A DNA stretch of 64,000 nt, from assembly GCA_964016885.1 (NCBI GenBank), contig OZ024765.1, forward strand, positions 18,910,001-18,974,000. The letters run 5' to 3'. The position numbers were made by a program, and so were the translations under genes. Under the pieces are notes generated by a model. It was not told where the DNA came from and ran no database searches. It worked only from the letters and a program-made list of their open reading frames with translations. Of the stretch, positions 31,129 to 37,975 are shown piece after piece; the first letter of the stretch is position 1, and each line of letters starts with the position of its first letter. The stretch is from Eledone cirrhosa. Lineage: Eukaryota.

Positions 31129-31804
31129 CTCAGGTTCATCTGAATCATTGAGCACTTGCCGCACATCTCGGAGGTTGTTTTTCGTTATTTCGTGGGCCGA
31201 AATGCGAATCTCAATAATTTATGTTTGTATTATTCTCCAGACTCTAGCTATTGACCAGTTAATTTTCTTGATTTTTTAGTTGATACTATTGACTGATGAA
31301 TAGCTTATGTTAATTTTAACCCTTCTGTTGAGAACTCTATTCGATTTGTGATGTTTTTGCATTCTTGCAAAAATATACACAACTGATTTCATTCGCCTGA
31401 TATAGGGGTTGCCTCCCTTGCGGATCCCCACGTGGGGTCAGCAATAGTCAGTCCTTGTATTAACATTGAACTAAAACCTGTTGAGAAAGTGGCTTCCTTG
31501 TTCAATCATCTTACCAGAAGCCTGACATTATTTATGTTGGCGGACGGTACTTGATTTAGGAGCCGTAGAAACCCATATACTGGATTTTACCAACCTTCCA
31601 GGGGTCCGGGTAAATTTTCAATACCCGAATTACTTGATCGGCTTTTTTGGCTATACGAATGATTGTTTAACCATCAGTGTGTTTGGCCTTTAACGTTTGT
31701 TTTAGCTCTGGTTCATGTGAATCATTGAGCACTTGCCGCACAACTCGGAGGTTTTTTTTCGTTAATTCGTGGGCCGAAATGCGAATCTCGATAATTTATG
31801 TTTG
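31129..31804. mobile_element. 577-bp-unit terminally redundant element in (TA)n; inverted relative of the 615-bp unit
   Basis: ~95-bp direct repeat at 31133-31227 and 31710-31804 with (TA)n on both sides; colinear shared motifs with the reverse complement of 36411-37025. Confidence 0.75.
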
Positions 31805-31822
31805 CTTATATATATATATATA

Positions 31823-32095
31823 TTTAAACCTTTATTAATTACAAGATTAAAAAATATATAAAGAAAATATATCTTATTCCTTAAACTACTGTATTTGTAA
31901 GACGTTGCTTAAACTATATATTTATGTCTGTATATTAAATTGTAATTATATATATATGTATATATAATATATTGTATATATAATATACAGACATAAATAT
32001 ATAGTTTAAGCAACGTCTTACAAATACAGTAGTTTAAGGAATAAGATATATTTTCTTTATATATTTTTTAATCTAGTAATTAATAGAGGTTTAAA
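31823..32095. repeat. Long inverted repeat (~115-bp arms, TA-rich spacer)
   Basis: 31823-31937 is the reverse complement of 31981-32095 with about 2 mismatches. Confidence 0.92.
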
Positions 32096-32209
32096 ATATT
32101 TACTATTTACCTGAGTGATTAAAACATTCCTAAGCCGATTAAGAGGCCGAGTGAAGTATGTTTCCTATACTGTTTATCATACTAGTTAAGCTGTTGTTAT
32201 TATTTTGTA

Positions 32210-33250
32210 ATTGCAGCATAGAGTTACGCCCCTTTACGTCCTGAGTTCAAATTCCACCGAGTTTAACTTTGCCTTTCATCCTTACGAGGTCGATAAAATA
32301 AAGTACCAGTAATGCACTGGATAATTGCTGGCCTTGTGCCTAAAGTAGAAACAATTATATATCCAGGGCGGTGGATTGGCAGTATCGGTAGAGGGTCGGA
32401 CGCCATGCTTTGACGTATATAGTTACGTCCCTTTACGATCTGAGTTCAAATCCCGCCGAGTTTAACTTTGCCTTTCATCCTTACGGGTTCGATAAAATAA
32501 AGTACCAGTAATGCACTGGATAATTGCTGGCCTTGTGCCTAAAGTAGAAACAATTATTTGAATTTAAATAGGGTGGTGGATTGGCAGTATCGGTAGAGGG
32601 TTTGACGCCATGCTTTCCAGCATAGTTACGTCCCTTTACGATCTGAGTTCAAATCCCGCCGAGGTTGACTTTACCTTTCATCCTTACGGGTTCGATAAAA
32701 TAAAGTACCAGTAATGCACTGGGTATTGCTGGCCTTGTGCCTAAAGTAGAAACAATTATATATCCAGGGCGGTGGATTGGCAGTATCCGTAGAGGGTCGG
32801 ACGCCATGCTTTGACGTATAGATTTACGGCCCTTGCCATTGTGAGTTCAAATCCCGCCTAGGTTAACTTTGCCTTTCATCCTTACGGGGGTCGATAACAT
32901 AAAGTACCAGTAATGCACTGGAATAATTGCTGGCCTTGTACCAAAAGTAGAAACAATTCTTTTTTAATTGCAGCATATAGTTACGTCCCTTTCTAATCTG
33001 AGTTCAAATTTCCGCGGTCGATTAAATAAAGTACCAGTAATGCACTGGGGTCGATTTATTTCGCCTTTTCCCTCTTCCCAAATTATACGAGAAATCATTA
33101 TTTGAGGGCAGTCGATCGGCCCTATTAGTAGAGCCTTATACACCACGCTTTGAGGCATAGCCCTTTACGTTCTGAGTTCGAATCGCGCCGAGATAAACTT
33201 TGTTTTTTATCCTTACGGGGTCGGGTGCACAAAGCCCCAGTAATGCACTT
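32210..33250 (+). mobile_element. Head-to-tail cluster of ~190-bp tRNA-derived SINEs (full copies at 32365, 32570, 32766, plus partial copies)
   Basis: Head GGCGGTGGATTGGCAGTATCGG, B box GAGTTCAAATCC, body TTTGCCTTTCATCCTTACGGG.TCGATAAAATAAAGTACCAGT, tail GTAGAAACAATTAT. Confidence 0.88.
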
Positions 33251-34408: not shown

Positions 34409-35120
34409 TAAAATACAATATGTTGAAAAGGTAACACACCAGAGGGAGATATACAGTGCGCTATCAATAAAAGAGGGAAAAACCACCAGTGTATAGAATC
34501 TATTCTCCTTTGAGCACAATATTTACAGGGAATGGCGAGGGCCTATGGCTCCGTTAATTTATCGTGATATTTCGCTCCTTATAACAGTCTTTCCTATCTC
34601 TCTGTTTGGTTGAGCACACTTCTCTGAATGGTTTTGGGCTGCCCTTTCTAGCAGTTCGTCTCTCAGAGGTCACTGGTTCACTTCACTGCCCTTAAACACG
34701 CTGTGACTTCTCTCTCCCACGTGTAGCTGGACAGTCACTTTTAAAATGCTCTTACTGTTGTCTTAAATGTATAGCCTTACACACGCTGATGAAACGGCGT
34801 TATTCCATTTCTGTCAACAAATTGGTGGCGAAACAGATCTCTTTGGATTTGTACGTGTGTTAAATAGTTATAGAGGTATTTATTTACGCTTTAATTTATA
34901 TTTTTAATTATCGTGTCTATAGTCTACCCTTCATAGGTTATAGATTCCATACACTGGTGGTTTTTTTCCCTGTTTTATTGATAGCGCACTGTATATCTCT
35001 CTCTGGTGTGTTACCTTTTCAACATATTGTATTTTAAAGAGCTCAGGATTTCTTCTCCTTTGAGCACATTATTTACAGGGATTGGCGAGGGCCGATGGCT
35101 CCGTTAATTTATCGTAATAT
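34409..35120 (+). mobile_element. Non-autonomous Penelope-like or retrozyme-like element (550-bp unit, inverted plus direct terminal repeats)
   Basis: 34411-34502 is inverted at 34941-35034; 34503-34570 is directly repeated at 35053-35120. It has an internal hammerhead and (TA)n on both sides. Confidence 0.8.
34779..34860 (+). ncRNA. Type-I hammerhead ribozyme with full stem III
   Basis: ACACACG-CTGATGA-(irregular stem II)-GAAA-CAGATC tctttg GATTTG-TA-CGTGTGT: 7-bp stem I, 6-bp stem III, GUA site with cleavage predicted after 34853. Confidence 0.82.
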
Positions 35121-35939
35121 ATATATATATATATAGGATATACGTTCCTTCACGCACAAGGCGCCAAGGTACGCATGTATTGTCCAACCAAATGCCAGTG
35201 TGGTTCAATGGCGGGTTAATAAATTAACGAGCCAGAACAAATATAAATAAGGTCAATTTTTTAAAATTTATTTTGAAACTTTTTCATTATTTGCTAAACC
35301 TTGTTTATATATATATATATATATATATATATATATATATATAATTGTATATATATATGCATATATGTAAATGTATATATATATGTATATGTAAATATGT
35401 ATATACATATATATGTATATGTATGTGCGTATGTGTATATATATATATATATATATATATATATATATATATATATATATATATATATATATATAAATAT
35501 ATATACAGAGAGAGAGAGAGAGAGAGAGAGAGAGATGGATTGATAGATATACATAAATAGATATATAGATAGCTATATATAGATAGATTTACATAGATAG
35601 ATATACATGTACTAAAAGGGTCGATTCGGCTAAAGGCATTCACCATCGGAGTTCGGTGGGGGTGTTAAACCCTAAGTCAGATTAGTGCTGGAATCCATTG
35701 AATGCTATTATGTATAAGAGATTAAGTTGTAAGTCGTTGTTAGATATGCTTCTGTTTATTATATACAGCAGGATGTTATTGTAAACTGTACAGATTTATA
35801 TGTATAAACAGGTCAGGACAGAGACATGCTTGTATGTATCTCTCTCTCTCTCTCTCTCTCTCTCTCTCTCTCGAGAGAGAGAGAGAGAGAGAGAGAGAGA
35901 GAGAGAGGTTCATATGAGTACGTATATATAAGTGTACAT

Positions 35940-36410
35940 ATGTATGCATGTGTGTATGCATATATAAATTTCTATATACATATATATATATATATGTGTA
36001 TATATATATGTATATCTATATATGTATATATATATGTATATATATATATATATATATATATATATATATATATATATGTATATGTATATATATGTATATG
36101 TATATATATATATATATATATATATACATATATATATATATATATATATATATGTATATGTATATATATATATATATATATATATATATGTATATGTATA
36201 TGTATATATATATATATATGTATATATATATATATATATATATATGTATATGTATATATATATATATATATATATGTATATATATATATATATATGTATA
36301 TATATATATGTATATATATATATATATATGTATATATATATATATATATATATATATATATGTATATATATATATATATATATATATATGTATATGTATA
36401 TATATATATA
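35940..36410. repeat. (TA)n/(TATG)n simple repeat
   Basis: Direct inspection. Confidence 0.95.
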
Positions 36411-37975
36411 TTAGAAAGATCGAGTATCGAAAAATCGGCGCACGAGTTAACGAAAAACGAAATCCGATATGAGCGGCAGAGGGCTCAATAATTCAGATGA
36501 ATCAGAGCTATAACTATCGTTAAAATACCGTCACATATAGAACAAGTCTACAATCAACCATACGATTTAAAATCGATAAAGGAAGATTCGGGCCAAACAG
36601 ATAAAAAATATCAATAAAACAATACGTCAATAATTTAAATGAATGTAAAATCATACCCGGACCCACTAGAAAGGTGTTAAATCTAGCTTCATGGGTTTCT
36701 GTAAATCCTAAGACAGTACTCTATCAGCTCACATATAAATATAAAAGCCTACTAGAATAAGTGGAAAGGAATTTACGTTGTCAACGAGTTTTATCCTGGC
36801 GGCAAAGGAGTCAACTAGCGGTGAAAAACGCACATGGCATTAGACAAGGGAGATGACCCCTATATCCGCGAAAATAATTCGAGTGAATATGGAAATACAC
36901 ATATCGAATTAGAGTGCTCAATAGACATGTTAAAATAAAACAAAAGCTATTCATCACTCAATAGAATCGACAAAATATGAGCAATAAAATTAACTGGTGG
37001 ATAGCTATGTCCAGAGCTAAATATATTAGAAAGATCGAGTATCGAAAAATCGGCGCACGAGTTAACGAAAAACGAAATCCGATATGAGCGGCAGAGGGCT
37101 CAATAATTCAGATGAATCAGAGCTATAACTATCGTTAAAATACCGTCACATATAGAACAAGTCTACAATCAACCATACGATTTAAAATCGATAAAGGAAG
37201 ATTCGGGCCAAACAGATAAAAAATATCAATAAAACAATACGTCAATAATTTAAATGAATGTAAAATCATACCCGGACCCACTAGAAAGGTGTTAAATCTA
37301 GCTTCATGGGTTTCTGTAAATCCTAAGACAGTACTCTATCAGCTCACATATAAATATAAAAGCCTACTAGAATAAGTGGAAAGGAATTTACGTTGTCAAC
37401 GAGTTTTATCCTGGCGGCAAAGGAGTCAACTAGCGGTGAAAAACGCACATGGCATTAGACAAGGGAGATGACCCCTATATCCGCGAAAATAATTCGAGTG
37501 AATATGGAAATACACATATCGAATTAGAGTGCTCAATAGACATGTTAAAATAAAACAAAAGCTATTCATCACTCAATAGAATCGACAAAATATGAGCAAT
37601 AAAATTAACTGGTGGATAGCTATGTCCAGAGCTAAATATATTAGAAAGATCGAGTATCGAAAAATCGGCGCACGAGTTAACGAAAAACGAAATCCGATAT
37701 GAGCGGCAGAGGGCTCAATAATTCAGATGAATCAGAGCTATAACTATCGTTAAAATACCGTCACATATAGAACAAGTCTACAATCAACCATACGATTTAA
37801 AATCGATAAAGGAAGATTCGGGCCAAACAGATAAAAAATATCAATAAAACAATACGTCAATAATTTAAATGAATGTAAAATCATACCCGGACCCACTAGA
37901 AAGGTGTTAAATCTAGCTTCATGGGTTTCTGTAAATCCTAAGACAGTACTCTATCAGCTCACATATAAATATAAA
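36411..37975. mobile_element. 2.5 tandem, apparently identical copies of a 615-bp unit embedded in (TA)n
   Basis: TTAGAAAGATCGAG occurs at 36411, 37026 and 37641; the third copy ends at ACATATAAATATAAA, running into (TA)n. Confidence 0.9.

Follow-up and report, generated by a model that had tools for sequence, protein, structure and literature searches.

The 64,000-nt window of the Eledone cirrhosa genome studied here (assembly GCA_964016885.1, contig OZ024765.1, positions 18,910,001 to 18,974,000) contains two non-coding tandem insertions, A and B, lying among long (TA)n tracts, and it raises the question of how such units are processed, copied and inserted. A sequence-only reading of the window had described them as circularly permuted members of one structured element family, derived from a circular or multimeric RNA and lacking a canonical ribozyme. 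We consider it probable that they represent a dispersed non-coding repeat of 580-615 nt working as a non-LTR (long terminal repeat) retrozyme, which would be cut by a type I hammerhead ribozyme with a U3-A8 core, circularised, and copied into TA tracts by the reverse transcriptase (RT) of a Neptune-type Penelope-like element (PLE). The insertions and their targets are:

31129..31804, plus strand: insertion A, 1.17 units of a retrozyme-like monomer of 577 nt, its 3' end fixed and its 5' end truncated
36411..37975, minus strand: insertion B, 2.54 identical 615-nt units with a fixed 3' end at 36411 and a truncated 5' end at 37975
30598..31127, unstranded: (TA)n target upstream of A
35960..36410, unstranded: (TA)n target at the 3' end of B
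37976..39519, unstranded: (TA)n target at the 5' end of B

The period of A is 577 nt, in a family with a unit of ~582 nt, and its terminal overlap of 99 nt is 94% identical. In B, which lies on the opposite strand, the 950 overlapping bases are 100% identical between copies, as had been claimed. The relationship of A and B as diverged homologues was confirmed by a whole-unit alignment (352 of 551 columns alike, 64%) and by a best local match with E 2e-35. The sequence blocks reported earlier were located in both insertions, together with the compensatory pair change (CTGGA/TCCAG in A, CTAGA/TCTAG in B). The unit was also correctly described as non-coding, its longest open reading frame (ORF) having 66 codons; a coding reading was discarded, since every frame is closed even though 582 and 615 are divisible by 3.

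The proposed random circular permutation was not borne out. Placed in register, A and B have their ends at one homologous position, so that the apparent permutation is an effect of 5' truncation. When starts and ends were tabulated across the family, as had been suggested, all 28 A-family copies with two junctions (28 of 30 loci) ended within ~7 nt of a common 3' point, and variation was confined to the 5' starts. The microhomology between this common end and (TA)n is TAT. The terminal junction of family A leaves the internal junction (ATGTTTGTATTATTC) at slightly differing bases, sometimes with extra letters, and this ragged junction with its added letters fits microhomology priming and not a precise nick.

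Genome-wide, the core motif of the family gave 4,877 matches (control 0), and the exact 3' end of B fused to (TA)5 was found at 712 sites; in BLAST searches against the own genome, 109 and 157 matches were obtained among the few candidates scored. Deeper subfamilies lie outside this sampled set. For B, 75 sites were characterized, namely the first 83 listed contig-1 matches of the 712 less eight fetched earlier (seven of them known long arrays). They contained 0 (31 sites), 1 (22), 2 (6), 3 (5), 4 (4), 7 (1), 9 (1), 11 (2) or at least 12 (3) full units, and arrays fetched apart from this sample reached 18 units. TA runs were present in 46 of 71 readable 5' flanks, only two of 71 copies stopped at the unit boundary, and one locus (L060) showed a PLE-like inverted 5' arm. 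Homogeneous arrays with unrelated flanks occur on many contigs and unit DNA is also present in sequencing runs from other samples, which argues against the assembly duplication that had been named as a possible refutation. At L193 a B-type array directly follows the 3' end of an older-subfamily copy, and at L271 one TA run is flanked by two copies facing each other; these arrangements indicate that the family re-uses its own target tracts.

The statement that the unit lacks a canonical ribozyme is literally true, as no CTGANGA..GAAA was found around B; however, a variant hammerhead core was recognized in each unit. An Rfam scan of the window at the gathering score gave no match, and at E<=10 no ribozyme family matched in the element region, including hairpin, twister, HDV-like, pistol and hatchet ribozymes. 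Hairpin, HDV-like and twister mappings made by eye against consensus sequences failed on topology or conservation, and a hairpin loop-A look-alike was not kept across subfamilies. The blocks noted earlier correspond instead to the 3' half of a hammerhead: GAAA, helix III as ACCC/GGGU, C17 and then CGGGU, with the CTGGA/TCCAG hairpin extending helix III. About 80 nt upstream of this half there is a 5-nt strand pairing with CGGGU, followed by UUGANRA (UUGANAA or UUGANGA). The predicted elements are:

31476..31611, plus strand: predicted type I hammerhead of A
31476-31480 and 31607-31611, plus strand: predicted 5' and 3' strands of helix I
31481-31487 and 31568-31571, plus strand: predicted U3-A9 core UUGAGAA and GAAA
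31489-31566, plus strand: predicted long helix II arm; helix III closes with 31602-31605
31606, plus strand: C17, with the predicted cut between 31606 and 31607
31465..31506, plus strand: predicted pseudoknot between the flank 5' of helix I (31465-31471) and the helix II internal loop (31500-31506)
31623..31627, plus strand: ACCCG, predicted to sequester the helix I 3' strand in the full circle (P=0.99), a possible off-switch
36655..36789, minus strand: predicted hammerhead of the 3'-most unit of B, with core UUGACAA at 36784-36778 and the cut between 36660 and 36659
37270..37404, minus strand: predicted hammerhead of the second unit of B, with the cut between 37275 and 37274
37885..37975, minus strand: third hammerhead of B, 3' half only (52.9 bits), the rest lost by 5' truncation

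According to this model, each unit would hold a type I hammerhead, open at helix I, with the three-helix layout and the A15.1-U16.1 pair, GUC as the NUH triplet, a helix II of ~80 nt and an extended helix III. The conserved blocks map to G12-A15.1 with helix III, to the GUC cut and to the helix I 3' strand. Since AGAAACCC and GGGTCCGGGTA match hammerhead positions, the suggestion of a new self-cleaving class was not supported: the predicted ribozyme is a variant of the hammerhead. Its core has U3-A8 or U3.G8 in place of C3-G8; among 125 readable regions (of 145 distinct ones), positions 3 and 8 were U/A in 96, U/G in 28 and C/A in one, and all four bases occurred at position 7.

Covariation was assessed in an alignment of 26 natural copies, from which 11 of 35 cluster medoids were omitted (nine truncated, interrupted or deleted, one replaced by window B, and L087, with a degenerate core). 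Pairing was possible in 92.8% of the cells of the structure versus 87.0% after shuffling (0/500), and 41 cells were altered on both sides (0/500 shuffles), kinship among the copies inflating both tests. Helix I was 99% paired, with changes of the wobble type only (G-U-tolerated on the RNA-sense strand), four of the eight basal pairs of helix II had double changes, and helix III was invariant. The hammerhead was also the unconstrained local minimum-free-energy fold of both window copies. A covarying pseudoknot-type contact was predicted between the helix I flank and the helix II loop, with the pairings GAAC/GUUC, GGAC/GUCC and GGAA/UUCC; cognate sequences formed 4.9 bp on average, versus 3.4 for shuffled ones (maximum 4.1 of 1000) and 2.7-3.0 for cross-clade swaps.

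Cleavage at GUC once per unit, as predicted from this model, would fall after position 366 of the B unit. The 5' ends of 71 B copies were examined around this point: 14 lay at 367-390, three within the preceding 24 nt and none at 391-414, a stretch just as AT-rich. When ends at 367-390 were separated by pass, they accounted for 11 of 67 first-pass arrivals versus three of 114 later-pass ones (Fisher p=0.0013), against a background of 1.4%; later-pass stops at the cut were unenriched (p=0.2). That the excess is confined to the first pass is more readily accounted for by templates of two kinds, cleaved linear monomers and circles, than by a structural pause. In the A family, six of 28 5' ends lay 0-14 nt past the cut and one was exactly on it, in a sample that favours copies longer than one unit.

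The tandem arrays were then read as a record of their template, following the logic of Roll-Seq, in which template errors recur in every repeat and RT errors in a single one (PMC11331410). The 37 arrays of at least two units carried 25 haplotypes, and many were 100% uniform. Ten of them (12 listed, less one separate subfamily and the window haplotype) had changes fixed in every unit and absent from all other sampled arrays, which indicates a monomer bottleneck. Young arrays contained 15 unit-private substitutions per 143,295 nt (~1e-4), a rate bracketed by the RT error range of 0.6-2.2e-4 given in PMC11331410. Unit-private transitions in all arrays were strand-biased on the sense strand (T>C 12, G>A 8, A>G 0 and C>T 1; p=0.004 and 0.015). 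In the array at C1:44.27 Mb, G312T was present in five of 13 units, interspersed; these five are the sole genome matches of the pattern, and the array stops at the base adjoining position 312. In that at C1:300.96 Mb, eight of 13 units carry errors at one site in three forms. One damaged template base read repeatedly fits both arrays, although their interspersed variants may also be collapsed haplotypes or gene conversion. Nearly uniform arrays, private changes and strand-biased errors fit the repeated copying of one circular template. The earlier proposal, that a circular or multimeric RNA gave rise to the insertions and that a structured RNA processes it, was supported; AGAAACCC and GGGTCCGGGTA would belong to this structured RNA. 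We lean, by a narrow preference, towards regarding a young array as the trace of a single Penelope-type RT that made up to 18 or more laps of one circular RNA produced by the ribozyme, with template errors in all units, RT errors in single ones, and a damaged base misread until it stops the enzyme. A 645-nt contig from a sequencing run of another sample, which goes back on itself by 615 nt, was rejected as a circle because a tandem array gives the same result in de Bruijn assembly.

A candidate for the enzyme was sought in the same genome, where GIY-YIG matches are abundant, the top 30 being all of the C-terminal type. Intact elements with RT and C-terminal GIY-YIG have a Cys linker of the kind that PMC8557442 reports for Neptune/Nematis, and several PLE families end in (TA)n. 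Minimal hammerheads after PLE ORFs were inspected at 17 loci: eight had U3-A8, three had C3-G8 and none was called at six. In two PLE families of the genome, a U.U extra pair resembles the extra helix II bases of the unit. The L131 family, with copies 96-99% identical, has CTTTCTAA followed by TATATA at internal and terminal junctions, as in B; the PLE family ending in CTTTCTAA joined to (TA)n reads CTTTCTAATATAT at its internal junction, as B also does. From the common U3-A8 core and 3' junction, a Neptune-type Penelope is the likely mobiliser of the units. A search for a Naiad partner with one exact 22-nt motif gave no matches, a search too narrow to show absence of Naiads. At L137, L143 and L149, ~1 kb past the PLE ORF, a minimal hammerhead was observed with U3-A8 and GCAA in place of GAAA, a candidate for a further core variant.

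Taken together, the proposed cycle would start with read-through transcription of a copy longer than one unit, followed by the predicted GUC cleavage once per unit (suggested by core, covariation and truncation pile-up) and ligation of the monomer to a circle, which would be stable since helix I is predicted to be disrupted in it: in full-circle folds helix I was absent in eight of eight units. A PLE endonuclease would then nick (TA)n, and the nicked DNA would prime at an internal UAU of the RNA, which would explain the fixed yet slightly ragged 3' end. Finally, the RT would run off the cleaved 5' end of linear monomers or lap circles with a constant stop rate of ~0.06% per nt, yielding the observed range of 0.1 to at least 18 units.

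Several observations weigh against this interpretation. A comparison by nhmmer of the unit with 50 GIY-YIG/PLE loci revealed no extended homology, save one separate insertion; the link between unit and PLE consists of the core variant and 13 terminal bases, and the partner is accordingly a putative one. The invariance of the hammerhead 3' half in the alignment is partly circular, as this half served as anchor; a search with outside anchors shows it in most of the matches listed. Both strands of helix II carry an additional base, forming an A.A or C.A mismatch that adjoins the core and sets off from it the G-C present at pair 10.1-11.1 in 23 of 26 copies; this is a position at which untested candidates were rejected in PMC3088659. 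Copies with U3.G8 may be weak. When 60 nt upstream were added, as in a nascent fold without the pseudoknot, helix I probability fell to 0-0.43 in eight of eight units, and the downstream NCCCG strongly displaced helix I in only four of eight circle folds. Regarding the truncations, the 367-390 window was chosen after seeing the data (scan test 0/5000), a second cluster of 5' ends at 499-523 (11/71) has no ribozyme explanation, and the exact-nucleotide count in family A, seven loci at the cut versus four and two at control sites, is not significant. As to the arrays, the one at C24:28.6 Mb, beside a gap, mixes two haplotypes in blocks, and an old array of at least 45 units (C1:81712500-81742470, L197-L199) is heterogeneous like a satellite.

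The arrays could also have arisen with the same ribozyme and PLE partner and no covalent circle, being copied from long linear multimeric donor transcripts or by an RT that jumps back while copying a linear monomer. Non-autonomous PLEs that lack canonical hammerheads and lie head to tail in multiple copies have been described (Chlamys/MRC1, PMC8557442), the first-pass truncations point to the use of cleaved linear templates, and the switch of one array between haplotypes in blocks would be in line with this reading. However, where one array alone carries a change in every one of its units, a bottleneck of one monomer is implied, and the assembly holds no other copy that could have donated the private change interspersed in five of 13 units, with a stop at the adjoining base. 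An enzyme jumping repeatedly at a free end would moreover be expected to stall there, and later-pass stops at the cut were unenriched. We therefore regard linear templates as an unlikely source of the arrays, while giving them more weight than the two explanations that follow.

HUH transposition likewise leaves tandem copies of which one end is fixed and the other variable, and the family could be a rolling-circle DNA element (Helitron/HUH type), or amplified extrachromosomal DNA circles inserted again, with the hammerhead-like fold as a relic; deamination of single-stranded DNA could even yield the same strand bias. Membership in Helitron/HUH was rejected, since in place of a precise nick-defined end the 3' end varies over several bases and carries non-templated additions, and copies stopping at the unit boundary are too few for a unit-length terminator. 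In addition, all changes in helix I are tolerated as G-U on the RNA-sense strand and truncations track the ribozyme cut, which makes a DNA origin very improbable. An equally small probability was assigned to a hammerhead-shaped domain that no longer cleaves and serves as an RT-binding or pausing structure, truncations being pauses at helix III. The atypical core, the weakness of helix I in longer contexts and the poor cleavage of PLE minimal hammerheads in vitro (PMC4209133) would agree with it, but a pause should act in every pass, not in the first alone as the excess does, and the core and the 3/8 pairing are kept across subfamilies only ~64% identical. Cleavage followed by copying of the circular RNA thus continued to be preferred.

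The family was then compared with known systems. Like the metazoan non-LTR retrozymes (Cervera and De la Pena 2020, PMC7229834; also PMC11722881), which are non-coding, low in GC and arranged in tandem as dimers up to multimers, each unit bearing one type I hammerhead (PMC7229834), it consists of dispersed non-coding tandems with one predicted hammerhead per unit and no separate LTR and internal region. It is unlike them in its unit of 577-615 nt, outside the ~170-400 nt (repeats of 150-450 bp) reported in PMC7229834, a range that is descriptive only, so that the unit was filed as a variant despite its size. It further differs in the U3-A8/U3.G8 core, ~80-nt helix II, long helix III and pseudoknot, as opposed to their canonical compact motif; in a circle predicted to disrupt helix I, whereas most of theirs are predicted to leave the ribozyme free (PMC7229834); and in its strong (TA)n preference and fixed priming site, the unit being known here from genomic DNA alone. 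We judge it quite probable that the family is a new, large variant of these retrozymes.

The predicted ribozyme is close to the minimal PLE hammerheads (Schistosoma Cercyon, PMC4209133; PMC3088659), with which it shares the U3-A8 pair, a short helix I, and one additional base that separates A9 from a G-C pair; covariant U3-A8 cores and pseudoknots between stems I and II have already been published there. The minimal motifs have a palindromic mini helix III and act as dimers inside autonomous elements (PMC4209133), in contrast to the full helix III, second extra A before G12 and ORF-less unit found here. With insertions of Chlamys MRC1 PLEs, Naiad and Neptune (PMC8557442), the family has in common 5' truncation, partial tandems, multicopy head-to-tail copies, an occasional inverted 5' arm, microsatellite targets and no visible target-site duplication, besides the fixed 3' end of non-autonomous PLEs. 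According to PMC8557442, most non-autonomous Chlamys PLEs are devoid of canonical hammerheads, and their 3' sequence is as a rule common to them and an autonomous family; in the unit, by contrast, the shared part is limited to the core variant and the 13 terminal bases. Among the papers listed for retrozymes, octopus hammerhead ribozymes and cephalopod Penelope, none was seen to describe the family (Repbase, Dfam and subscription journals were outside the search, and supplements may list similar motifs). A metagenome pattern scan gave 13 matches, taken as chance, with a best model score of 14.9 bits.

In PMC7229834, retrozymes were proposed to spread as circular RNA copied into tandem cDNA by a LINE (long interspersed nuclear element) or PLE RT, without direct evidence in its Discussion. 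Because the present family is very young, with hundreds of insertions and a candidate partner in the same genome, this proposal becomes testable for ribozyme, circle, priming site and enzyme. If the model is true, the arrays would provide direct genomic evidence for the hypothetical retrozyme cycle, with a Neptune PLE as mobiliser, and in-genome estimates of the stop rate (~0.06% per nt) and error (~1e-4) of a PLE RT. In addition, U3-A8 cores with very long helices slip past Rfam and CUGANGA descriptors, so that families of this architecture may be widely overlooked.

Other repeats were observed in the window and in the family. The old array at C1:81712500-81742470 belongs to an older subfamily and its unit types recur, which suggests a retrozyme array turned into a satellite with higher-order repeats. 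A SINE-like (short interspersed nuclear element) repeat of ~200 nt occurs in head-to-tail copies at 32222-33260 and 40645-41049 of the window, and similar copies sit inside the helix II arm of some units (L093, L174). Other short inserts in the same (TA)n stretch, at 33400-33600, 33680-33750, 34020-34300 and 34400-35260, are likely 3' fragments of several PLE families; some short (TA)n inserts are palindromic and end in GAAAC-type motifs. Positions 1-30100 are occupied by ~6 tandem copies, 95-98% identical, of a ~4.6-kb unit with inverted SINE-like pieces inside and no ORF longer than 120 codons. Finally, a LINE-like element on the minus strand (58642-63279) contains a 619-aa ORF with a CCHC knuckle and, also recognized by eye, endonuclease-like (60313-61419) and RT-like (58642-59874) frames.

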